Shown here: piece by piece, positions 18,304-31,488 of the stretch
Position numbering within the stretch: the stretch's first letter is position 1
Layout: the number at the start of each line of letters is the position of its first letter
Source: Candidatus Saccharimonadota bacterium
GTDB lineage: Bacteria; Patescibacteriota; Gracilibacteria; UBA1369; 2-02-FULL-48-14
Length of the DNA stretch: 32,000 nt
Direction of reading: 5' to 3'
Assembly (NCBI GenBank): GCA_016699145.1
Contig: CP064962.1
Coordinates: forward strand, 1,260,001 to 1,292,000
The notes under the pieces: generated by a model
Told to the model about the DNA's origin: nothing
Database searches by the model: none
The model's input: only the letters and a program-made list of their open reading frames with translations
Made by a program: the position numbers and the translations under genes

Positions 18304-18379
18304 GGGCCCGTAGCTCAGTGGTTAGAGCAGGAGGCTCATAACTTCTTGGTCGCTGGTTCAAGTCCAGCCGGGCCCACCA
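18304..18379 (+). tRNA. tRNA with CAT anticodon (elongator Met or lysidine-modified Ile2; not initiator-like), CCA encoded
   Basis: It folds as GGGCCCG-TA-GCTC-AGTGGTTA-GAGC-A-GGAGG-CTCATAA-CTTCT-TGGTC-GCTGG-TTCAAGT-CCAGC-CGGGCCC-A-CCA. The G1-C72 pair and the absence of three G-C pairs in the anticodon stem argue against an initiator. Confidence 0.85.
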
Positions 18380-19941
18380 TTATGGATAATCGGACTCTTG
18401 CACGCAGACGCAAAGGGTTCTTTTAACCTTATAGAAGTGACCTCCTTGCCCTTCACCAAAAGGTGCAATATGGAATTTCTCAAAATCTGGTCTTTTACCG
18501 CGGGTGTAGCGAATTTTAGGCTAAGAGAAAGGGTTTTTAGGAGGTTCAATAAATTTTTGTAGTCCAAGGGCTGGTCGCTCATCGATGCCTCCATGTCCTG
18601 AACGCGCGACTTGCAGGAGGCGATGAGGTTCTCAAGCCTCTTACGAGTGTCGAGGTACACTTTCTCCTCATGTTGATCCAATTGCTTCCTACGGGGAAGG
18701 ACCTCGGCTATGAGTCCATCCAGGGTGTCCTCATGCTCTTGTAGCTTGCGCTTCAATGCCGGAAGCTCCCTCGCCATCAGAGCGGTTTTTTCTCGCCGTG
18801 CCTCCTTATAGGCTTCTACATAGGCGTCGTAATCCTCTTCGCCTAGAGTGCTGAATTGGTCGAACACGGCCGCAGCCGCATCGATGATCGTCTTTGCACG
18901 AATGGTGCCAGTGTTCTCGCAGCCGAGCTTCTTTTTGTTTTGGCACCAGAACCTTAGATAGTAACCACTGTTCCCTTTGCTGATACCGCTTGTCATCGGC
19001 ATCTTGCAGCCGGCGCAAACCACTAAGCCTCGGAAGGGAATGTCATGCACATGGGCGCGTTTCTCAACGCTATTGCCCATGCCTTGTACCAAAAGCCACT
19101 CGCCCTCCTCGATCATAGGTATGAAGTCGTAGATTTGTGTTAGGTCAATCTCACGGCCGCCTTGTTCTAAGAAACCGAAATAGAACCGATCCCGGAACAT
19201 ATTTGATAACTTCTGATTGGTCATCGTTTGGGCTGCATTACCCTTTGCCTTCTCACCCTTTTTAATGATTCGACGGTAACCGTTTGCGTTTAAGTGATCG
19301 GTGATTTCAAGAAGAGATTTCCCATTGAGCCGCATCTCCCATGCGCTTTGTACCAACTCAAAAAGGTTAGGCCCGTAACCGGAGGGCGTCTCATCCGGCT
19401 CATAAAGTCCGGTCAATTCGTTGCGCGTATAGCCGGGTTTGAATTGCCCAGCGGACCTACCGAGGTCAAGGGCGCGATCTAGGCCACGGCTCACGTCGGC
19501 TCCTAGCTTGTCGCTGTATTGCTTGGCGAGTACAAAGGCAATGCCCAACCCCATTTTCCCGTTGTAATCGTTAACAAAAGAATGAGACGCAAACCGTAGG
19601 TCTACTAACAGCTTGCAATCGAGCAGATCAATGATTTCCCCGGCCTCTTTCATATTCCGCGCCAGGCGATCAGGATGCCATGCAATCAAGCCGTCCACCT
19701 CTCGCCGACGGATCTTTTTTATGAGTTCATCAAATTTAGGTCTGTTGCCGGAGTACCGAGCCGACCGACTGTCTTCGATTATGTCCTCCTTCGCAACATT
19801 GATATCCATGCGTTGGGCAATCTCCAAGCACTCGGCGAGTTGGTCCTCAATTGAGCGCACCTGTTTTTTAGGGTCATCCGTAGATTTACGGATATAAATG
19901 CAGTAGCGCTTAGCTCGAATTTCTATTGCGTCGTTCTCCAT
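18358..19941 (-). CDS. large serine recombinase (integrase)
   Basis: The N-terminal resolvase-type catalytic domain reads YCIYIRKSTDDPKKQVRSIEDQ...DSRSA...RPKFDELIKKI..VDGLIAWHPDRLARN. It is followed by a recombinase domain, a zinc ribbon (CAGCKMPMT...WCQNKKKLGC) and a coiled-coil tail. The last 7 codons and the TGA stop lie inside the tRNA. Confidence 0.85.
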   Translation of the reverse strand: MENDAIEIRAKRYCIYIRKSTDDPKKQVRSIEDQLAECLEIAQRMDINVAKEDIIEDSRSARYSGNRPKFDELIKKIRRREVDGLIAWHPDRLARNMKEAGEIIDLLDCKLLVDLRFASHSFVNDYNGKMGLGIAFVLAKQYSDKLGADVSRGLDRALDLGRSAGQFKPGYTRNELTGLYEPDETPSGYGPNLFELVQSAWEMRLNGKSLLEITDHLNANGYRRIIKKGEKAKGNAAQTMTNQKLSNMFRDRFYFGFLEQGGREIDLTQIYDFIPMIEEGEWLLVQGMGNSVEKRAHVHDIPFRGLVVCAGCKMPMTSGISKGNSGYYLRFWCQNKKKLGCENTGTIRAKTIIDAAAAVFDQFSTLGEEDYDAYVEAYKEARREKTALMARELPALKRKLQEHEDTLDGLIAEVLPRRKQLDQHEEKVYLDTRKRLENLIASCKSRVQDMEASMSDQPLDYKNLLNLLKTLSLSLKFATPAVKDQILRNSILHLLVKGKEVTSIRLKEPFASACKSPIIHNGGPGWT

Positions 19942-20423
19942 GTTTCGGGGTGAGGGTTGAATCTCATTAGTTGTTCCTTGGCCTGTTCGGACAACGGGCG
20001 GGGGTCCTTTATTTCCGGGGCTGGCGGAGGTCTTACTGCCGTAGGCGCGAATTCTAGAGGCTGCATACGTTCGAGCAGCTTTAAGGCCATTTGCGGGTCT
20101 TTTTTTGCGTGCTCGATCACTACTTTACGGAGGGCCATGTTAACTTCAAGGCGTAAGCGCTCTTTCCGCTCTCGAATCTCCGGCTGTTTTTCAATGAGCC
20201 GATAGTAGGCGGAGGGTGAAATTCCAGCATAGAGCGCGGCGTCTTTATCACTAAGGCAGTGTGCGAATGCTTCGTCGAGTTTCGAGAGCACCAGCTTCTC
20301 ATTCTTGCCATCAAAAAGAGGTCGGCCGCACTTGCAAAGCGACTTTAATTTCTTGCACCGCCTACAACTTGGAATAGTCGTTACCATACCTGTAAATTGT
20401 ATCTGAAAAATAGCAATTTTCAT
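19923..20423 (-). CDS. zinc-ribbon plus helix-turn-helix DNA-binding protein (resembles the phage small-terminase / transposase N-terminal HTH); possible regulator or directionality factor
   Basis: It reads CRRC..CKCGRP, then LSKLDEAFAHCLSDKDAALYAGISPSAYYRLIEKQPEIRERKERL. It overlaps the integrase start by 19 nt. The likely true start is M13 (ATG 20387). Confidence 0.45.
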   Translation of the reverse strand: MKIAIFQIQFTGMVTTIPSCRRCKKLKSLCKCGRPLFDGKNEKLVLSKLDEAFAHCLSDKDAALYAGISPSAYYRLIEKQPEIRERKERLRLEVNMALRKVVIEHAKKDPQMALKLLERMQPLEFAPTAVRPPPAPEIKDPRPLSEQAKEQLMRFNPHPETWRTTQ

Positions 20424-20494: not shown

Positions 20495-21211
20495 TTAGTT
20501 CGGTAAGTAAACCTTAAACTTTGTATTCTCAATCGGGAGTTTCTTTTTCGCCTCTTTCAGCAAATCATCGAACATTCGCCCCCACTTTTCGTAATGATTT
20601 CTTAAAAAATTATGCGTTACATAAATGTTGAGCGAGGGGATAGAGTTTGAAGGCAGTTCGCCACCCACAACAACGGCTGATGCAGCGAGGCAAAACATCT
20701 TAGGGTCATTCCCCGTACAACCAGGATTTAGCAATGCCATTAGGGAAGTGATTTGTGTAGAAAGGTTATCGGGAGTTTTCCACTTATGACCATCTTTAAT
20801 AGGGTCGACGTAAGCTAAGTGTGCCGCGACTTTATCACGAAAGTCTCTTGTTCTTTGTTGGCCAATTCTCTGTAAGTCTAATCTATTTTCATCTTCTGCA
20901 ATATCCGGGTCCACATAGAAACGTAACCGTGTGACAAGTTGCATATAACTTTTTTTAATCAACCCTTCCAATAGGCCTACCTGATTAGCATAAGCGAGAG
21001 TTCTTGTTGTATTCCTTACGAAGAATGCGTTGTCCTGCAGCGCTTCGTCAGCATCAGTGTAGCGAGCAGCATCCTCTAAGAACTCTTGATTAATCCACTC
21101 CAGCCCATCGATCAACTGCTCAATTGCCGTAACTTCATGGAAGTCTGGTAGCCGATCTATAAAACCCTCATTGTACTCTATGAGAATGGTGCCCTCCTTT
21201 ATGAACTGCAT
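20495..21211 (-). CDS. hypothetical protein with a HEPN-like R-x5-H motif (candidate RNase effector)
   Basis: 238 aa, predicted mostly helical by eye. The motif FRDKVAAHLAY resembles the R[ND]K.(A)AH form of the HEPN Rx4-6H active site. There is no other support. Confidence 0.35.
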   Translation of the reverse strand: MQFIKEGTILIEYNEGFIDRLPDFHEVTAIEQLIDGLEWINQEFLEDAARYTDADEALQDNAFFVRNTTRTLAYANQVGLLEGLIKKSYMQLVTRLRFYVDPDIAEDENRLDLQRIGQQRTRDFRDKVAAHLAYVDPIKDGHKWKTPDNLSTQITSLMALLNPGCTGNDPKMFCLAASAVVVGGELPSNSIPSLNIYVTHNFLRNHYEKWGRMFDDLLKEAKKKLPIENTKFKVYLPN

Positions 21212-21255: not shown

Positions 21256-21567
21256 CTACAGATTTTTGATGCTGCTTGTGATCCAGTCTTGAACTTTATA
21301 TGCGTAAGCGGTCGGGAGTTCCGCGGACCCAAGTTCTGCACCGGCCCCCATGACTTTAATGAACGATTTTGTAAAGGTGCTCTTAACAACACTCACCGTC
21401 TTCACTTCGCTCCTCGGGACACGGAACAGAACGGCACCTAGGAAGCTCCTAAATTCTAAATAGGTGTCGTCTAGCGTTAGCTTGCCGAGGACGCCGGAGA
21501 GGCCGATTTTGTACGTTTCCATGAGGGAAGGGGTTATGCGCAAAGAGGGTAGGCGGGCGTACCCCAC
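21256..21567 (-). CDS. small beta-rich hypothetical protein (bacterial PH/GRAM-like by pattern); start is either GTG 21567 or ATG 21522
   Basis: 103-aa ORF (88 aa from M16). The pattern GKLTLDDTYLEFRS...VPRSEVKTVSV resembles bPH-type domains. This is weak. Confidence 0.4.
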   Translation of the reverse strand: MGYARLPSLRITPSLMETYKIGLSGVLGKLTLDDTYLEFRSFLGAVLFRVPRSEVKTVSVVKSTFTKSFIKVMGAGAELGSAELPTAYAYKVQDWITSSIKNL

Positions 21568-21678
21568 ATACCGTCGGTCACGAAGACCTGCGATAGCGGA
21601 CCCAACCTACCCATGGCTACGCGCTATCGCGCTCATGGGCAAAGTGGGCCTTCGTGCAAAACGATATATGGGGTACGC
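21557..21678 (-). ncRNA. structured RNA element (three nested stems plus a possible pseudoknot), either cis-regulatory or a stand-alone ncRNA
   Basis: P1 pairs 21557-21570 with 21665-21678 (14 positions, 1 mismatch). P2 pairs 21579-21588 with 21647-21656 (10 positions, 1 mismatch). P3 pairs 21590-21598 with 21622-21630 (9 bp, perfect). Loop CCCATG (21610-21615) is complementary to CATGGG (21634-21639). Both mismatches are A-C or C-A on the + strand but G-U on the minus strand. No U tract follows, so it is not a terminator. Confidence 0.45.
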
Positions 21679-21721
21679 GAAAACAGTACCTCATTCAGTA
21701 GAATATTTCAATCGCACCAAT

Positions 21722-23110
21722 CTAAATGATCTTCACTGTTAGGGTGTCCATGGCTGCTACCCTCATATTCGTTTCATCTACTAAATAGCAGGTTACGAAG
21801 TGACTCCCCAGGTATTCCGTTGTTTCTGGATTGTTCCTTGTATGTCCTCTTGTGATTTCACCGCGAAGGGAATGAGCCGCTAAAGCCTGTTCGCCCGTGT
21901 TCCTGACTTTCCAGTAGAGCGTGTACCTTTCTTTGCTGTAACCCGTGCGTACCTCAAATGAGATCTTTCTTTTGTCCTTGCCACGGGTAAGGCCTTTCTG
22001 TAGTGGAAGAGACTCTGACAACCACCCTCCTGCGAAACCATCTTTCGGTTCTACCTTACCGTCGATCCTAAACTTGCTTTTGTCTCTGATTGTATTTGCA
22101 TCAATGTGAAGAGAATAGGCCTCGATCATCTCTTCGCCGGCTATAAATCGATTCAGCAAATTCAAGACCTCGTCTGAAGATGACTCTGGCTTTATTGCAT
22201 TTAACAGAACAAGACCACTCATCGCTCCGATCTTAATCACGCTTTTCTCTTCTGGCGTTAGGTCCGTTACGTACTCATCGGTGTGTCGTATTCCGTGCTC
22301 CGCTGTTTGTGCGCGGTCTAAGAAATAGGGCTCACGGAGGTAATCTTCTATGTGTATGAGCGCTGTCTTGATCGTAGTTGTAATGTTGAAACTTGGATTC
22401 CTATCCACAAGCTCTTTTACGATTTGCTCAATGTGAAAAGACTTTAGTTTGAACTCCACTCCGCCAAACTTTTCAGAACTTTTATAGGCTCGAGCCCATT
22501 TTTTTAATAACTTCGTCGCTTTCCGAAATACCTTAGAACGAGAATTTGTTATTTTAGCGGCCTCTCGGTAGCCCTTGGGATCTGTTTTGATCCAAACCAT
22601 GACCTTGTCGGCGGGCATTTCAGCATAAAACTTTTCCCGTTTGCGTCTACTCATAAGCCCTACCTCTGGGATTTCGTAAAAGGGTTCATCAAATTCATTT
22701 CTTTCGGGAAGCTCCCGTGCGGGTACCACATCGATTGAAAAATCACCCTCTCTTTCAGGAAACTCTATTACTATCGAATGCGACTGCGCGCTGATTTCGA
22801 CGGGCTCACTCAACTTTCTGTACTCGTCACGAAGGTTATCAGCCAAATCTTCTAGGACATTGTTCACGGAGATCTGTTCCGCAAGGAGAGCTTTTTTCAG
22901 CGTCTCCGGCATTACCCAGATCACGTCCAAGTCGTTCACAGGCTTTGTCGAAGTGAACCTAGCGTAAGACCCACTCTTAAAAGTACGTCCCTCGAGCATT
23001 GATTTTAACCGTTTATATTCAGCCTCTATGACATCGCGGTCTTCTTCGAGAGGAGTGCAGGAGGCATGTATAAATGATGATACAGTCGCTTCTAAATCAA
23101 CTTCATTCAT
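21722..23110 (-). CDS. SMODS/CD-NTase-like nucleotidyltransferase with an AGS-C-like C-terminal domain
   Basis: The Pol-beta NTase motif is G-S-x11-D-x-D (KSGSYARFTSTKPVNDLDVIW) and the third acidic strand is FSIDVVPA. The helical segment TDPKGYREAAKITNSRSKVFRKATKLLKKWA is as seen in CD-NTase/OAS-fold enzymes. The C-terminal roughly 110 aa (YTLYWKVRNTGEQALAAHSLRGEI...HFVTCYLVD) matches my memory of the AGS-C sensor domain. Confidence 0.6.
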   Translation of the reverse strand: MNEVDLEATVSSFIHASCTPLEEDRDVIEAEYKRLKSMLEGRTFKSGSYARFTSTKPVNDLDVIWVMPETLKKALLAEQISVNNVLEDLADNLRDEYRKLSEPVEISAQSHSIVIEFPEREGDFSIDVVPARELPERNEFDEPFYEIPEVGLMSRRKREKFYAEMPADKVMVWIKTDPKGYREAAKITNSRSKVFRKATKLLKKWARAYKSSEKFGGVEFKLKSFHIEQIVKELVDRNPSFNITTTIKTALIHIEDYLREPYFLDRAQTAEHGIRHTDEYVTDLTPEEKSVIKIGAMSGLVLLNAIKPESSSDEVLNLLNRFIAGEEMIEAYSLHIDANTIRDKSKFRIDGKVEPKDGFAGGWLSESLPLQKGLTRGKDKRKISFEVRTGYSKERYTLYWKVRNTGEQALAAHSLRGEITRGHTRNNPETTEYLGSHFVTCYLVDETNMRVAAMDTLTVKII

Positions 23111-23708
23111 AACTCGTGGTGATCATGGATACGATTACGTCATTTAATAGCCTCCCTCGCATATTGGTGACCGTTACATTCCTTTTTCTATTGATCGCAT
23201 CCCACATGGCATCCGGTATACGTTGTCCACCTTCCGTGGGGGCATATACAACTAAGGCGTCCTTGTCTCTCTGTTGGTCTAGAATGCGTTGGAAGTCTGC
23301 TGCTTGCCAATCCCTAAAGTCGACTACATAGAGTGTGCTTCCTTGGCCCCTCCCAATATCACCTGGATGAGTAATTTCTATGATGTTTTTTTCTTTAATC
23401 AAGGTCGTGTCAACCAACAAACTTTTGAGGCTCCCAATGTTTGCGTGACTGGCAAAAATAGAAATCTTACGCTTACCCATAGCGTTGCCGAATCTTATAA
23501 ATGCTGGCTTAACGCCCTTGCACCACAGCACTGCCCTGTAGATCACTGTCACGATGACGATGGCGGTGCTCACGTATCCGAGAACGTTCAAGATTTGAAG
23601 TATGACATCCATTCCGTAAATGTTTTTAGGGGAGAGGCCACTCCGTTTCAATCCGAAGCAGTCTTCGCACATATACACGAAGTTCAGGTCTATGTCCACG
23701 CATAGCAC
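23103..23708 (-). CDS. membrane-anchored protein with a cytosolic flavodoxin/REC-like (Rossmannoid) domain
   Basis: It has one long hydrophobic helix (VILQILNVLGYVSTAIVIVTVIYRAVLW). This is followed by alternating beta/alpha elements (KISIFAS, LYVVDF, ALVVYAP, NVTVTN). Its stop overlaps the NTase start as ATGAATGA. The tracked start is GTG. ATG M33 is an alternative. Confidence 0.45.
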   Translation of the reverse strand: MLCVDIDLNFVYMCEDCFGLKRSGLSPKNIYGMDVILQILNVLGYVSTAIVIVTVIYRAVLWCKGVKPAFIRFGNAMGKRKISIFASHANIGSLKSLLVDTTLIKEKNIIEITHPGDIGRGQGSTLYVVDFRDWQAADFQRILDQQRDKDALVVYAPTEGGQRIPDAMWDAINRKRNVTVTNMRGRLLNDVIVSMITTSYE

Positions 23709-24126: not shown

Positions 24127-24180
24127 AGGCCCACCAAAAAAATTACAAAAAGTACGAAAAGTTTGCTAGATAATAGCCTT
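24127..24180 (+). repeat. junction repeat copy R1 (contains the tRNA-terminus-like GGCCCACCA)
   Basis: AGGCCCACC-AAAAAAATTACAAAAAGTACGAAAAG-TTTGCTAGATAATAGCCTT aligns to R2. Over 24141-24180, 32 of 40 positions match 25451-25497, with one 9-nt and one 2-nt indel. Confidence 0.6.
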
Positions 24181-25353
24181 CGCCACACTCTTCTTTGTTT
24201 CATCACTACTAGAATAAAGGGGGAGAGAATCGAAAACTTCAGACGGTTTTTGACCTTTTGAAAGTTCCCTCTCAATCCATCGGCGCAGGCTTTCGTAAGA
24301 CTCATATAAGTCATTAAAATCAGCATTGCGATTGGCATCGGAGACATGATAATTCACACCCCAGAGAGGTAGACTCTTGGTATACGTAGAAGCAAAGTAG
24401 GATAAGATGAATCCATCTGCAATATGGCCCAAAAGCGTCCGTAAGTCACGTAGAACTTGTCCTAACTTTTGTGAAAAACTTTCGCCCTCTCTTTTGGAAA
24501 ATAAAGCTTGAATTGCAAAGTCTCTAGAACTTTTCTCGTCGTAGCCAAGTAGTAAACCCAGAGCATGCATGCGATTTGCATCCTCTCTCTCAAGTTCAGG
24601 GCTTGTTTGCTCTACGAAAAAGTTTACAACTTGTTCAGGCGGAGATTCTTCTGTGAATCCAAATGAAGCAAAAAGAGAAGCATGCTTACGAAGGCAGTTG
24701 CGAACAGTGACGGGATTGTAAAAAAGAAAAATTTGTTTTGCTTCCGTTAGGTAAGGGTCTTTGATTTCTTTAACAAAAAAATGATCAGGGTCTTTTGCCA
24801 TAATTTTTCGCAACTGAGGCTCTAGCTCCTCTTGAGGTACATCAAGTCCACATGAATAAAATGCCACTGGTTTTAAGCCAGCTAATACGGGTGTGACAAA
24901 AGGGATCTCTCCACAAAGGGCTTCAGCTGCGAATCGATGCTCACTTGTAGCTTCTGGGGCCAAGTAAGGCCTTACATTTTCTCGTATCACAGCATCCTTT
25001 CTTTGGATTCGGTGGTCTCCTTTATAAGCTTTCCTTGGGACAAGCAAAACACTGTCTCCTTCGTGGCTCAATTCTGCGCAGTCTTCAATTTCTATTAACC
25101 CAGCAGAATATAAATTTTTTACACGCCATTTTATTAGAGGTTCATTTGAACCTGGGAGCGTATTATAACTTCCATCCAAATAGGGTAAAACCGCCCAAAT
25201 AGCTTCTTGATCAAAGTCGATTACAAGAACGGGTGGATCTGAAGAAACAAGTTCACATTTGAGAGCTTGGGCTTGCCATCTTAAAACATCAAGAAGCTGG
25301 GTGAACTTAGGATTTTCTTTTTGTGTTATTGATTCTGTTGCGGTGTCGTTCAT
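24166..25353 (-). CDS. hypothetical protein (395 aa), no recognisable domain
   Basis: Long AT-rich ORF with a strong promoter of its own. It is divergent from the methyltransferase gene. Confidence 0.6.
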   Translation of the reverse strand: MNDTATESITQKENPKFTQLLDVLRWQAQALKCELVSSDPPVLVIDFDQEAIWAVLPYLDGSYNTLPGSNEPLIKWRVKNLYSAGLIEIEDCAELSHEGDSVLLVPRKAYKGDHRIQRKDAVIRENVRPYLAPEATSEHRFAAEALCGEIPFVTPVLAGLKPVAFYSCGLDVPQEELEPQLRKIMAKDPDHFFVKEIKDPYLTEAKQIFLFYNPVTVRNCLRKHASLFASFGFTEESPPEQVVNFFVEQTSPELEREDANRMHALGLLLGYDEKSSRDFAIQALFSKREGESFSQKLGQVLRDLRTLLGHIADGFILSYFASTYTKSLPLWGVNYHVSDANRNADFNDLYESYESLRRWIERELSKGQKPSEVFDSLPLYSSSDETKKSVAKAII

Positions 25354-27399: not shown

Positions 27400-30300
27400 A
27401 TGTATAGAACAGCCATTTTTATACTTTGCTTACTCGTTTTCTCGGCGGCTTTTTTTGCGTACACGCCAAAAGCATTGGCCGCCAACGGAGACCTCATCAT
27501 CACGGTCACAGATCAATTGGGGAATCCTCTCACGGGCACCAGCGTAACCGTCAATTGCAACGGCTTAGCGCTTTCTTTGGCCGATGGCTTGGATGGAGAT
27601 TTAACGGACAATGGAACCATTCGAATCCTTTCATTGACACTAGTGACTGCAAGTTGCTTGACGAATGGCGAAGCAATCACACAGTTGGATGTGTCTAAAG
27701 ATGCTTATGTAACCACAGCCGCAAGCGGAGATTTAATATGGAATTCTGGATCGGAAAACAACAATTCAGTCGCTCTCAATTTTTCTCACAAAGTCACGGG
27801 TCAAACGGAATTGGGAGCTAGCCTCACAGGAGCGACCGTCACCGTAGGAGGAATCACTTGCATAGAAAATGCGGGCACTTATTACTGCCCTACGCCTCTT
27901 GCCAGTGACGGTGGAAGTAATGATGTCATCGTCACAAAAGATGGTTACGTCACACATTTGTCCAGCTCCACCAACCGTGCGACGAATGCAACAGCACAAG
28001 CAACCTACACTTCCAGCAACGCCTTCGCTTACAAAATCACCAGCATCACAACGGAGGTGTTTTCCACGAACATCACGGGAAGCGTCAGCACATTCACCGT
28101 AGGAGACAACAGTGGACAAGACAATTGCACCCTAAATGGAGGTTCGTGGTATTGCCCTGTTTTGCTAGCGAACAGCAATGCTGAGCCAAGCGGAACCGCT
28201 ACCTTGGATGGTTACGTAAGTGAGGCCCTGGATTTGACCGGCAGTGACATACGAATAAGCAACACAGATGCACAAATTTCAACGACTTTAAGCGGAATAA
28301 AATATGCTCACAAAGTCACCGGCCAAACGGAACTTGGGGGAAGTATCACAGGGGCCACGGTCACAGTTGGAGGTACGAGCTGTGTAGAAAACAGCGGAGT
28401 TTACTATTGTCCAACTCCTTTGGCCAGCGACGGTGGAAGTAATGATGTCATCGTCACAAAAGATGGTTACGTTACACATTTGTCCAACTCCACCAACCGT
28501 GCAACGAACGCAACGGCACAAGCGACCTACACGTCCAGCAATTTATTCTCGCATAAAGTCACGGGTCAAACGGAATTGGGAGCTAGCCTCACAGGAGCGA
28601 CCGTAACAGTGGGTGGAACCAGTTGCATGGAAAACAGTGGGGTTTACTATTGCGCGACAATATTGGCCAGTGACGGTGGGACCAACGACGTGATCATTAC
28701 GAAAGATGGCTACGTGACCTACACCACGAATTCAACAAATCGCACAACAAATGCAACCGCTCAAGCGACCTACACATCCAGCAATTTATTCTCGCATAAA
28801 GTGGCCGGGCAGACGGAACTTGGGGGAAGCATCACAGGGGCAACTGTTACAGTTGGAGGAACGAGCTGCGCAGAAAACAGCGGAGTTTACTATTGTGCAA
28901 CTCCTTTGGCCAGTGACGGTGGAAGCAACGACGTGATCATTACGAAAGATGGTTACGTGACCTACACCACGAATTCAACAAATCGCGCAACAAATGCAAC
29001 CGCTCAAGCCACCTACACCTCCGGCAATTTATTCTCACATAAAGTCACCGGGCAGACGGAATTAGGAGGCAGCCTGACGGGAGCAACCGTCACGGTGGGC
29101 GGAACAAGCTGTACGGAAAGTTCTGGCACATACTACTGCGCTACTCTTCTAGCTAGCGATGGCGGAAGCAATGACGTCATCGTGACGAAAGACGGTTACG
29201 TAACTCAGTTAGCCAATTCCACCAACCGTGCAACGAACGCAACGGCACAAGCGACCTACACTTCCAGCAACGCCTTCGCCTACAAAATTACGAGCATCAC
29301 AACAGAAGTCCTATCCACGAACATCACGGGAAGCATCGGCACATTCACCGTAGGAGACGGCAGTGGACAAGACAGCTGCACGCTGAATGGAGGTTCCTGG
29401 TACTGCCCCGTACTGCTCACGAATAGTAATTTGGAACCAACCGGAACCGCTACCTTGGATGGTTACGTAAGTGAGGCCCTGGATTTGACCGGCAGTGACA
29501 TACGAATAAGCAACACAGATGCACAAATTTCAACGACTCTAGCTGGAATAAAATATGCTCACAAAGTCATCGGTCAAACGGAGCTGAATGGAAGCTTAAC
29601 GACTGCGACAGTAACAGTCGGAGGGACGTCCTGCAGCGAATCGAGTGGAGTTTACTATTGCGCCACACCACTGGCTTCAGACGGCGGAGTCAGTGACGTA
29701 GTTGTTACTAAAGATGGTTATGTGACTTACACCGCCAATTCTACAAATCGTACAACAAATGCAACTGTACAAGCCACCTATACTTCTTCCAATCCATTCA
29801 GTTACAAAATCACTACAATAAGCACAGAAGCTCTTTCTGCCAATATCACAGCTAGCGCCATAAGTCTGACCGTTGGAGATGGAACAGGGCAGAGCACCTG
29901 CACACTGAACGGAGGCTCGTGGTACTGCCCCGTTCTTCTAGCCAACAGCGACGCAGAGCCAACCGGTACAGTCACTTTAGATGGCTATGTTTCAGAGGCC
30001 ATAGACCTCACTGGAACTGGTACAAGAAGTGGAGGGACCGATGCCCAAATCAGCACTACAATAGCAGCTGTTAAATATGCTCATAAAGTCACGGGACAGA
30101 CAGAACTCAGTGGAAGCTTAACGACTGCGACAGTAACAGTCGGAGGGACGTCCTGCAGCGAATCGAGTGGAGTTTACTATTGCGCCACACCACTGGCTTC
30201 AGATGGCGGAGTCAGTGACCTAATTGTGACCAAAGATGGCTATGTGACTTACACCGCTAACTCTACCAATCGTGCGACGAATTCAACCGCTCAGGCAACG

Positions 30301-31488
30301 TATACTTCCAGCAACGCCTTCGCCTACAAAATTACGAGCATCACAACAGAAGTCCTATCCACGAACATCACGGGAAGCATCAGCACATTCACTGCAGGAG
30401 ACAGCAGTGGACAAGACAACTGCACCCTAAATGGAGGCTCATGGTACTGCCCCGTACTGCTCACGAATAGTAATTTGGAACCAACCGGAACCGCTACCTT
30501 GGATGGTTACGTAAGTGAGGCCCTGGATTTGACCGGCAGTGACATACGAATAAGCAACACAGATGCACAAATTTCAACGACTTTAAGCGGAATAAAATAT
30601 GCTCACAAAGTCACCGGCCAGACGGAATTGGGGGGCGGCCTCACCGCAGCAACTGTAACGGTGGGAGGCACGACTTGCACAGAAAATTCTGGCACCTACT
30701 ATTGCGCAACTCTCTTAGCGGACGACGGCGGTACAAACGACGTCATTGTCATAAAGGATGACTACCTTACTCACACCGAAAATTCGACCAATCGCAGCAC
30801 AAATGCCACGGTCCAAGCCCTTTATGAAATCACTTTATATTCATCTGAAGAAGAACCCGAAGAAGAGCCCGAAGATGAACCCGAGGATGAACCCGAGGAT
30901 GAACCCGAAGAACTTGAGCAAACCTCTCTCATTCAATTTCGATATTGCTACTTCGCCGATATCTCTTCTCATTGGGCAGAGCCCTACATTCTGGACTTGT
31001 GCGCGCGAAGCATAATGGACTCAAGTGAACCCTTTTTTAATCCCGATGAATTCATCACACGAGCTGAAATGGCTCAAATCACATGGATGAGTTTTGGCGA
31101 TCCCACAGCCGAAATCACCCTAGCTTCAGAATTGAAAACTTTTGAAGATGTGGCTCCCAACGATTGGTTCAGTGACTATGTGAATGGAGCTCGAACCATG
31201 GGTGCAATAGAAGGATATGCCGATGGAACCTTCCGTCCCAACCAACCACTCAACCGAGCCGAATGCATGAAAATCGTACTTTCAGCTTTGTCCTTAAGTG
31301 GAGAAATTTCCGAAGTGCCTTTTTCAGATGTGGATCAATCCGCGTGGTACGCTCCTTATATCGACTGGGCTTATCAAAACAACATCATTGATGGGAAAAA
31401 CGAAAATACTTTTGCTCCTCAAGATTTCATTACTCGTGCAGAAGTAACAAAAATAATCTCAAACATGCTCGATTATGCAAATCGTTAG
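27400..31488 (+). CDS. SLH-anchored repetitive surface (S-layer-like) protein
   Basis: It has a signal peptide (MYRTAIFILCLLVFSAAFFAYTPKALA) followed by 8 A-type and 4 B-type Ig/PEGA-like modules. An acidic (EEEPEEEPEDEPEDEPEDEPEE) linker follows. The three C-terminal SLH domains read FADISSHWAEPYI..., FEDVAPNDWFSDYV... and FSDVDQSAWYAPYI... Confidence 0.8.
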   Translation: MYRTAIFILCLLVFSAAFFAYTPKALAANGDLIITVTDQLGNPLTGTSVTVNCNGLALSLADGLDGDLTDNGTIRILSLTLVTASCLTNGEAITQLDVSKDAYVTTAASGDLIWNSGSENNNSVALNFSHKVTGQTELGASLTGATVTVGGITCIENAGTYYCPTPLASDGGSNDVIVTKDGYVTHLSSSTNRATNATAQATYTSSNAFAYKITSITTEVFSTNITGSVSTFTVGDNSGQDNCTLNGGSWYCPVLLANSNAEPSGTATLDGYVSEALDLTGSDIRISNTDAQISTTLSGIKYAHKVTGQTELGGSITGATVTVGGTSCVENSGVYYCPTPLASDGGSNDVIVTKDGYVTHLSNSTNRATNATAQATYTSSNLFSHKVTGQTELGASLTGATVTVGGTSCMENSGVYYCATILASDGGTNDVIITKDGYVTYTTNSTNRTTNATAQATYTSSNLFSHKVAGQTELGGSITGATVTVGGTSCAENSGVYYCATPLASDGGSNDVIITKDGYVTYTTNSTNRATNATAQATYTSGNLFSHKVTGQTELGGSLTGATVTVGGTSCTESSGTYYCATLLASDGGSNDVIVTKDGYVTQLANSTNRATNATAQATYTSSNAFAYKITSITTEVLSTNITGSIGTFTVGDGSGQDSCTLNGGSWYCPVLLTNSNLEPTGTATLDGYVSEALDLTGSDIRISNTDAQISTTLAGIKYAHKVIGQTELNGSLTTATVTVGGTSCSESSGVYYCATPLASDGGVSDVVVTKDGYVTYTANSTNRTTNATVQATYTSSNPFSYKITTISTEALSANITASAISLTVGDGTGQSTCTLNGGSWYCPVLLANSDAEPTGTVTLDGYVSEAIDLTGTGTRSGGTDAQISTTIAAVKYAHKVTGQTELSGSLTTATVTVGGTSCSESSGVYYCATPLASDGGVSDLIVTKDGYVTYTANSTNRATNSTAQATYTSSNAFAYKITSITTEVLSTNITGSISTFTAGDSSGQDNCTLNGGSWYCPVLLTNSNLEPTGTATLDGYVSEALDLTGSDIRISNTDAQISTTLSGIKYAHKVTGQTELGGGLTAATVTVGGTTCTENSGTYYCATLLADDGGTNDVIVIKDDYLTHTENSTNRSTNATVQALYEITLYSSEEEPEEEPEDEPEDEPEDEPEELEQTSLIQFRYCYFADISSHWAEPYILDLCARSIMDSSEPFFNPDEFITRAEMAQITWMSFGDPTAEITLASELKTFEDVAPNDWFSDYVNGARTMGAIEGYADGTFRPNQPLNRAECMKIVLSALSLSGEISEVPFSDVDQSAWYAPYIDWAYQNNIIDGKNENTFAPQDFITRAEVTKIISNMLDYANR
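27787..30846 (+). repeat. in-frame tandem module array: A = 243 nt, A+B = 522 nt
   Basis: The module starts (HKV codons) lie at 27787, 28309, 28552, 28795, 29038, 29560, 30082 and 30604. The order is AB-A-A-A-AB-AB-AB-A. A 97-nt block is identical in three B copies (28191-28287, 29442-29538, 30487-30583). Confidence 0.85.

Follow-up and report, generated by a model that had tools for sequence, protein, structure and literature searches.

A covarying structured RNA, possibly a two-state leader, heads a PH-fold protein operon in predicted integrative islands of Candidate Phyla Radiation bacteria

What is the role of an exceptionally stable RNA fold of about 120 nt that lies between the cyclase gene of a CBASS (cyclic-oligonucleotide-based antiphage signalling system) operon and a small downstream gene, and to which of these neighbours does it belong? 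The question is raised by a 32-kb stretch of contig CP064962.1 (positions 1,260,001 to 1,292,000; this whole stretch, with its own numbering, is hereafter called the window), in which a first-pass annotation made from the letters alone had noted three nested helices, P1, P2 and P3, and a possible pseudoknot between a nucleotidyltransferase (NTase) gene and the genes downstream of it. To our knowledge, structured regulatory RNAs are almost unexplored in bacteria of the Candidate Phyla Radiation (CPR), which cannot be cultured. We find that the fold is a real, previously undescribed structured RNA that accompanies the small downstream gene, which encodes an 88-aa protein of predicted pleckstrin homology (PH) fold. 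With moderate confidence, we read this element as a two-state cis-regulatory 5′ leader of the PH-fold protein operon in integrative islands.

The sequences and coordinates that had been given for P1, P2, P3, the segments CCCATG and CATGGG, and the hexamers TTGAAA and TACTGT were all exact on re-checking, and P1 extends further than noted, to 19 bp (21557–21575 with 21660–21678). Together, P1 and P2 contain four imperfect positions, three in the 19-bp P1 and one in the 10-bp P2, each of which is C-A or A-C on the plus strand and a G-U pair on the minus strand. On the minus strand, a 146-nt stretch folds with −76.6 kcal/mol (z = −6.7, with 0 of 200 shuffles as good), compared with −61.7 kcal/mol (z = −4.0) for the same stretch on the plus strand. 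Both the G-U positions and the folding energies bear out the earlier view that this is a strand-specific RNA on the gene strand. When both strands of the window were scanned, the element gave the most stable 140-nt fold (−74.5 kcal/mol against a mean of −30.8, s.d. 7.1). It has no second copy in the 32-kb window, and no tandem repeats were found within it.

Six element-bearing loci from Peregrinibacteria and Peribacteria were compared: the window; L081 and L082, the loci of two close homologues of the 88-aa protein; and L083, L084 and L085, all from Peribacteria, which were found by scanning species genomes with a small alignment of the 88-aa protein family. These six sequences make up four sequence lineages, L084 and L085 being counted together. 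The L081 element is near-identical to that of the window; the L082 element has a quite different sequence and the same architecture, and is intergenic with the other flanking gene divergent; L084 and L085 carry a further version, again after a divergent gene (L085 was read from near-identical upstream sequence). In the five elements folded (L083 left out), the gene strand beats the opposite strand by 5.5–15 kcal/mol. The window and L081 differ by 12 substitutions, all of them in the 84 nt outside P1–P3 and 0 in the 76 nt of these helices (Fisher p = 4e-4). A 9-codon open reading frame (ORF) inside the element (AUGAGC...UAG) is not kept in L081 and was dropped from consideration.

A covariance model (R1) built from the window and L081 only, with P1, P2 and P3, picks out the element of L082 where it should lie and on the correct strand (18 bits, E ~0.03 in 68 kb), aligning its P1, P2 and P3 alike; each related locus has a single copy, always ahead of the same operon. 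All three helices are thus kept across lineages where the first-pass annotation had placed them: P1 spans 13–19 bp, at times with a bulge or a small internal loop (13–18 bp of different sequence in L082, L083 and L084/85), P2 6–10 bp, and P3 7–9 bp, closing a loop, L3, of 19–23 nt. The equivalents of P3 are CUAGACGGU/ACUGUCUAG in L084, AGACCGU/ACGGUCU in L083 and GAAUUGG/CCAAUUC in L082 (aligned as P3 by R1), with one pair changing from G-U in L084 to C-G in L083. P1, P2 and the helix that L3 forms with a downstream tail are wholly canonical in each lineage, and most positions show two or three pair types. The nucleotides shared across the lineages are only the GGG:CCC of the L3:tail helix, a UUUG and a partial CGUAGC (L3 begins with CGUAGC in both the window and L084), the junctions differing among these few sequences. 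MAFFT gave no structural alignment of the lineages, which were aligned manually; the cross-lineage pair tables were scripted, and formal pair counting was applied to L083, L084 and L085 only.

A pairing between L3 and the tail had escaped the first-pass annotation. A G-rich stretch of L3 is, in every lineage, complementary over 8–11 bp to a C-rich sequence that begins 0–6 nt past P1: next to the window pair, GGGUAGGU and GCCUACCC, these are GGGCAGGU and ACCUGCCC in L081, GGGCCGAUAG and CUAUCGGCCC in L082, AGCGGGUAUCC and GGAUACCCGCU in L084/85, and AGCGGGCAUUC and GGAUGCCCGCU in L083. The L3 segment begins 58–70 nt into the element in all lineages and is therefore in a mid-element position. 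The perfect runs measure 7, 8, 10, 11 and 11 nt, lengths that shuffled tails reached in 628, 147, 11, 0 and 0 of 5000 trials, respectively, and the duplex energies range from −19 to −22 kcal/mol. The CCTACCC of the tail occurs only once on the gene strand of the island in the window, and the tail complement is likewise unique within the islands. In all lineages, UUUG follows right after the tail segment, and a G-poor, C/U-rich spacer then leads to the AUG. From the window to L081, one pair changes from U-A to C-G by compensatory substitution and another from U-G to U-A; from L084 to L083, there is again a compensatory U-A to C-G change, at column pair 66:128. The L3:tail pairing appears to be kept by two independent compensatory events. 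A possible trans target, CCGCUACCCC ahead of the 67-aa gene, was discarded, as L081 does not have it.

The same L3 stretch has an alternative partner within the element. In the window, L081 and L082, this partner is region X, between P2 and P3, and the X:L3 helix is the long hairpin of the minimum-energy fold. It includes CCCAUG:CAUGGG, the complementarity from which an H-type pseudoknot had been proposed; a pseudoknot or alternative pairing is indeed present in the element, but this complementarity, although real, is part of the X:L3 helix, and covariation backs the 3′ tail as the pseudoknot partner. In L083 and L084/85, the alternative partner is the 3′ half of L3 itself. The internal helices exclude the tail pairing and, in the window and L082, exclude P3 as well. 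Between L084 and L083, the U to C change at column 66 is matched by A to G both at column 71, in the internal (apical) helix, and at column 128, in the tail. Region X holds 4 of the 12 substitutions between the window and L081, which, judged by eye, keep, wobble or add pairs, and the minimum-energy structure of L081 still forms the X:L3 hairpin. By rough estimates, the energies of the two conformers are close in all lineages (in the window, −77.1 kcal/mol for the unknotted fold, and −72.2 for the P3 form plus −13.4 for the duplex, before any pseudoknot penalty). In slid controls on L083, L084 and L085, the paired fraction falls from 97% to 28–38%. L3 thus appears to have two conserved partners that exclude each other, as a two-state leader would be expected to show; the sequences are so few, however, that this pattern suggests such a leader without proving it.

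The position of the element is that of a 5′ leader. In all six loci, a TAnnnT hexamer ends 4–6 nt ahead of the first G of P1, and a −35-like hexamer lies 17–19 nt upstream of it: TTGAGG and TAGGCT in L081, TTCACT and TATGAT in L082 (a pair that passes a formal promoter scan) and TGTACA and TAATAT in L083, all with a spacer of 17 nt as in the window, and TTGTGT and TATAAT with a spacer of 19 nt in L084/85. The promoter proposed earlier at the base of P1 is backed by this positional agreement among six loci, the boxes of the window itself being weak and those of all six loci being consensus matches. The element heads the PH-fold protein operon in all six loci, and in four of them (L082, L083, L084 and L085) the upstream gene is divergent, so that there the element cannot be a terminator and must begin a transcription unit. 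The first-pass annotation had likewise argued against a terminator, and a terminator scan agrees, finding no terminator-like site, only UCUUUG 10 nt past P1.

That annotation was also right in seeing a regulator-like layout, with the element ahead of a downstream ORF, and went astray over the start codon. The GUG at 21567 does open a mechanically called ORF of 103 aa; the real start, however, is the AUG at 21522, which begins the 88-aa protein annotated by NCBI and at which its homologues begin with the same METYK. This AUG is 35 nt 3′ of P1, and the proposed occlusion of the start codon by P1 is not borne out. Most of the 11 window genes whose starts were inspected, sufB and sufC included, have no recognisable Shine-Dalgarno sequence within 35 nt, and the organism seems to initiate translation largely without one; because this is the case for most window genes, the missing Shine-Dalgarno sequence ahead of the PH-fold gene is not special.

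The AF2 model of the 88-aa protein, computed from a 20-sequence alignment, has a pLDDT of 93.8 and consists of seven strands followed by a C-terminal helix; its top matches in the PDB are PH/PTB domains, and two members of the family weakly touch bacterial PH-domain Pfam models. The family is small, with 26 representatives at E <= 1e-3 among 1.84 billion, and the homologues in L081, L082 and L084/L085 show 86%, 69% and 39% identity. A tblastn search of phages with the 88-aa protein gave no match, and viral contigs scanned with the PH-fold alignment, the recombinase and three RNA patterns yielded either nothing or 32 chance matches that R1 rejected.

The element does not fall into a known class. 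The Rfam covariance-model scan that the first-pass annotation had suggested matches no family: at the gathering threshold, Rfam 15 finds only two tRNAs in the window and only the tmRNA in L083, and E-value scans of the element from the window, L084 and L082 give chance-level scores (at most 18 bits, against gathering scores of 33–100). The C4 model has no match in any Rfam scan, and what the element has in common with C4, a loop able to pair with a site shortly downstream in its own transcript and a home in a mobile element, likens the two in function only; with riboswitches, it shares pairings that exclude one another and tie the fold to the gene downstream. The P1-arm pattern is absent from 185,579 species genomes, a collection that does not include the source genome. 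Among the titles and abstracts brought up by full-text searches of the literature, none describes a similar RNA. Structured leaders with alternative pairings are a well-known kind; what is new is this architecture and its setting.

In the window, the element is flanked on both sides by minus-strand genes only, in the 5′ to 3′ order of a 395-aa ORF, a 67-aa ORF, a one-transmembrane (1-TM) CBASS effector, the CBASS cyclase (a CD-NTase, or nucleotidyltransferase of the cGAS/DncV-like type), the element, the 88-aa gene, a 238-aa gene, a 166-aa gene resembling phage small terminases (TerS) and a recombinase (Table 1). The segment 18304–26200 is an island integrated at tRNA-Met and carrying a two-gene type I CBASS, the nearest homologue of whose cyclase among 5.8 billion proteins is 50% identical. 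The TerS-like protein might serve as a directionality factor, or its presence might point to a satellite-like way of life. L081 is an island of the same type, with the same suf genes adjoining and the same recombinase; its upstream cargo is not CBASS but a 278-aa protein and a DUF6941 protein, and a different gene also follows the small gene. Nucleotide homology between the two is patchy, covering a methylase, the 67/74-aa gene, the element with the small gene, and the TerS-like gene with the recombinase, and it resumes 5 nt ahead of P1. Such a pattern indicates a shared backbone with two slots of differing cargo. The L083 element heads an operon of two genes, in which a 129-aa lipoprotein-like ORF precedes the PH-fold gene, and faces a divergent serine recombinase abutting the tmRNA gene. 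The segments 70–1982 and 3407–6240 of L083 represent a related island at the tmRNA gene, with the recombinase overlapping the 3′ part of the tmRNA; its cargo, convergent on the PH-fold operon, comprises a GHKL (HATPase_c_3)-SUKH protein and a C5 cytosine (Dcm) methylase. Downstream of the PH-fold gene in L084 (3663–6246) are a 197-aa ORF, an 80-aa ORF that weakly matches the ABC-3C middle component MC6 (E = 0.006, which misses the Pfam cut-off), and a long ORF cut by the end of the locus; from this weak match and our reading of the unscanned long ORF, the cargo is probably an ABC-three-component (ABC-3C-like) conflict system. Judged by gene order, the RNA is a backbone feature of serine-recombinase islands with variable cargo, inserted at tRNA-Met or tmRNA genes.

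Table 1 Features of the element and of its neighbours in the window (positions in the 32-kb stretch).
Feature	Position	Strand	Remarks
395-aa gene	24166-25353	-	no counterpart in L081
1-TM CBASS effector	23103-23708	-	PADLOC E = 3.5e-50; 8-nt overlap with CD-NTase
CD-NTase with SMODS and C-terminal AGS-C domains	21722-23110	-	PADLOC cyclase model E = 3e-81
-35-like hexamer TTGAAA	21706-21711	-	17 nt from -10-like box; consensus match only; comparable hexamers at same position in five related loci
-10-like hexamer TACTGT	21683-21688	-	ends 4 nt ahead of P1
P1 5′ strand GCGUACCCCAUAUAUCGUU	21660-21678	-	predicted 5′ end of RNA; 19 bp
P2 5′ strand CACGAAGGCC	21647-21656	-	10 bp; 6-9-bp helices at same place in other lineages
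Region X CACUUUGCCCAUGAGC	21631-21646	-	internal competitor, pairs with L3 in minimum-energy fold; contains CCCAUG
P3 5′ strand GCGAUAGCG	21622-21630	-	9 bp
Loop L3 CGUAGCCAUGGGUAGGUUGGGUC	21599-21621	-	23 nt; 19-23 nt across lineages
L3 segment GGGUAGGU	21605-21612	-	complement of 3′ tail
P3 3′ strand CGCUAUCGC	21590-21598	-	
P2 3′ strand GGUCUUCGUG	21579-21588	-	
P1 3′ strand GACGGUAUGUGGGGUACGC	21557-21575	-	
Tail segment GCCUACCC	21547-21554	-	pairs with L3 as pseudoknot or alternative helix
UCUUUG, then G-poor, C/U-rich spacer to start codon	21523-21546	-	
Gene of 88-aa PH-fold protein (NCBI IPG41_06990)	21256-21522	-	gene accompanying the leader
238-aa all-helical protein	20495-21211	-	RDKVAAH (Rx5H) motif
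166-aa TerS-like protein	19923-20423	-	phage small-terminase PHROG match E = 4e-11; directly upstream of, and overlapping, recombinase gene; kept in L081
527-aa large serine recombinase		-	gene end overlaps 3′ end of tRNA-Met (18304-18379)

Under the two-state reading, the first base of P1 would be the transcription start, a domain of ~120 nt would be clamped by P1 and P2, and the P3 hairpin would present the 19–23-nt L3, the G-rich stretch of which would choose between the internal competitor and the C-rich tail 3′ of P1. In the tail-free state, the long C/U-rich, G-poor stretch ahead of the AUG would be single-stranded, and in the tail-bound state it would be drawn into a pseudoknot against the folded domain. 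The switch would set the expression of the downstream operon, which runs from the PH-fold gene through the next cargo gene and, in the window, on to the TerS-like and recombinase genes; the CBASS operon of the window would be only cargo in the slot upstream. One possible output is premature termination: the tail helix would be followed by UUUG, and the free tail and spacer would offer the kind of long C-rich, G-poor stretch that Rho prefers. Another is ribosome access, in a genome where most genes have no Shine-Dalgarno sequence. As a first guess, the trigger could be the PH-fold protein acting on its own leader, this protein being the most economical effector candidate because it is always linked to the leader. 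A more ambitious version, which we regard as something of a long shot, would make the leader the master switch of an undescribed family of CPR integrative defence islands, a new class of protein- or signal-responsive RNA that decides whether the downstream module (PH-fold protein, defence cargo, TerS-like protein and serine recombinase) is expressed and so ties defence or excision to a signal, phage infection for instance.

Several points weigh against a two-state leader. The comparison covers just six sequences, which form four lineages of a single candidate phylum, and the cross-lineage alignment was fitted by hand to each lineage's own helices, so that its weight lies in each lineage independently having helices at the same place. 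The shuffle control on the three sequences of L083, L084 and L085 is not significant by itself (57/500). The promoter-like boxes of the window and L081 are weak, with 3/6 matches in the −10 hexamer, and RNA there may come mainly from read-through of the upstream cargo. For an intrinsic terminator, the run of U residues behind the tail is short, and, with the tail segment 24–40 nt from the AUG, direct occlusion of initiation is not obvious. The poor conservation of junction and loop nucleotides between these few lineages argues against a small-molecule aptamer, a metabolite pocket being disfavoured because the junctions in particular vary. Instead of forming one arm of a switch, L3 and the tail might pair as a static tertiary pseudoknot. 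Finally, the 5′ and 3′ ends, any switching, and its output and trigger are predictions from sequence.

Some of the same observations can be read differently. The domain might be an immunity-type small RNA in the manner of P1 C4 or P4 CI, cut or terminated out of the transcript, with L3 antisense to the tail of its own operon, in cis or in trans, and shutting off the genes downstream, those of the TerS-like protein and the recombinase among them. The layout of an exposed loop and a downstream target kept with compensatory changes, the location of the module in a mobile element beside recombinase genes, the nuclease resistance that the long P1/P2 clamp would confer and a target sequence unique to the tail within the islands all fit such an RNA. 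We nonetheless consider it unlikely, given that the element has no likeness to the Rfam C4 model or to any other family, that the target does not overlap the ribosome-binding region, that no processing signal is recognisable, that the internal competitor pairing, which also covaries, would have no role, and that no recombinase gene was seen downstream in the L082 and L084 sequence examined (the L082 contig ends ~400 nt past the gene). Quite unlikely, in our view, is a purely static 5′ domain, the clamp of which would counter 5′-end-dependent decay or provide an RNase III site, with L3:tail as a compacting tertiary pseudoknot that does not switch. Placed at the predicted +1, a P1 of 13–19 bp plus P2 is stabler than a ligand-responsive P1 would be, the junction nucleotides are not conserved across lineages, and the pseudoknotted form is about as stable as the alternative, or more so. 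A plain stabiliser, however, needs no P3, no 20-nt loop and no conserved tail complement; moreover, the competing internal helix also covaries, and X still pairs with L3 in L081 despite four substitutions.

The two remaining explanations move the function away from a leader altogether. As a long imperfect palindrome, next to which window/L081 homology resumes at the very edge of a variable slot, and given that G-T pairs are tolerated in single-stranded DNA too, the element might act at the DNA level, as a selfish REP/MITE palindrome, an attC-like site or a recombination or origin hairpin at the edge of the cargo slot, or else as a terminator of the upstream genes. This is very improbable. It is present in a single copy in 32 kb and once per related locus, always ahead of the same operon; there are no GTTRRRY/RYYYAAC attC cores at its ends (the sole GTTRRRY lies inside L3, at 21600–21606) and no integron integrase, the island using a serine recombinase; there is no U tract, and with a divergent upstream gene in four loci it terminates nothing there, nor does it end a co-directional upstream cargo gene; and the tail complement, which covaries with the loop, is outside the palindrome. 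Even less can be said for the roles originally suggested, as a sensor, substrate or primer of the CBASS NTase or as an antitoxin of the 238-aa protein, taken to be HEPN-like: they have physical adjacency on their side, in the window only, and we consider them extremely improbable. We collected 80 metagenomic loci encoding homologues of the window cyclase, 60 or 61 of them with readable downstream DNA of sufficient length; blastn and nhmmer searches of the 80 with the element found nothing beyond chance, R1 had no match in any of them, and the region after the cyclase shows no conserved fold in those with such downstream DNA, the downstream fold of the closest homologue (49% identity) reaching only −19.5 kcal/mol. 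Conversely, five loci carry the element without CBASS or a CD-NTase, next to DUF6941, HTH or recombinase genes instead. The attractive link between the cyclase and the RNA is thus wrong. The link to the 238-aa protein fares no better, the gene after the PH-fold gene differing from locus to locus without detectable homology: unrelated proteins take that position in L081 and L084. In the test for a type III (ToxI-like) toxin-antitoxin system, there are no tandem repeats, and the protein encoded immediately downstream has a PH/PTB-like, not a ToxN-type, fold. The 238-aa protein itself, which has no family match in Pfam, PADLOC, PHROGs or NCBIfam, keeps RDKVAAH in its single homologue in the whole protein collection and has an unusable AF2 model (pLDDT 42); the second cargo slot may here hold a HEPN-like defence gene.

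Strong folds downstream of other cyclase homologues were set aside as unrelated, being a tRNA on the other strand (L034), ordinary hairpins (L031) or coding, GC-rich DNA. A multi-hairpin region of unrelated sequence follows a distant (32%) cyclase homologue at L008 4561–4750, with −78 kcal/mol over 190 nt.

The two-state leader that we favour can be compared with several known systems. The C4 RNAs of phages P1 and P7 and the CI RNA of P4 are likewise folded RNAs in the operon leaders of mobile elements, with a loop complementary to a downstream site, and this loop-target pairing controls the downstream genes of the element. Unlike these, the present RNA has no family match or recognised RNase P-type processing features, its target is off the ribosome-binding site, its loop has a competing partner, and its host belongs to the CPR. 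In the rpsO/S15 leader of E. coli and the T4 gene 32 leader, too, a hairpin loop can pair with a downstream strand as a pseudoknot, and the protein encoded by the operon is, as here, a candidate effector; in our case, however, the domain is larger (P1–P2–P3, ~120 nt), the pseudoknot strand is 24–40 nt from the AUG, and the PH-fold effector is a candidate only. With the SAM-II, preQ1-II, c-di-GMP-II and ZTP riboswitches, the element shares its location in a 5′ untranslated region, a closing P1, a loop-tail pseudoknot and exclusive pairings, whereas it differs in the lack of an Rfam match, a P1 far longer than a switching helix and the absence of junction and loop conservation. Stabilisers of the ompA-leader type similarly place a helix at or beside the predicted first transcribed nucleotide, but are simple hairpins without a P3 loop, a tail complement or a competing helix. 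Finally, the co-occurrence of a structured RNA and a CD-NTase in the window recalls cabRNA and CdnE. The cabRNA is a structured phage RNA that activates a CBASS cyclase, is encoded by the phage and acts in trans, whereas the element is encoded by the island, is missing from other CBASS loci and occurs in islands that have no CBASS.

The element is a compact, well-delimited motif without an Rfam relative, kept by structure across lineages that share little sequence, and it bears a rare signature, one nucleotide covarying with two alternative partners. It marks the backbone of islands that appear to shuttle defence systems (CBASS, ABC-3C-like, GHKL-ATPase/methylase) between genomes and could help to locate such islands and new cargo. 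Switching, if real, would show how bacteria with minimal genomes regulate mobile defence modules, and a master switch of this kind would work by a pseudoknot of loop and tail, against which an internal mimic of the tail would compete.

Two other regions of the window stand out. On the minus strand, 2241–2500, a stretch of 64–67% G+C, gives the second most stable fold (−61 kcal/mol per 140 nt) and sits within a 230-aa ORF (2187–2879), so that this fold is probably an effect of composition. Positions 27780–30900 hold diverged direct repeats of 243 and 522 nt in 7–8 copies (63–83% identity), followed by short GAAGAAGA(N)CCC repeats, an array that is presumably the gene of a giant repetitive surface protein.

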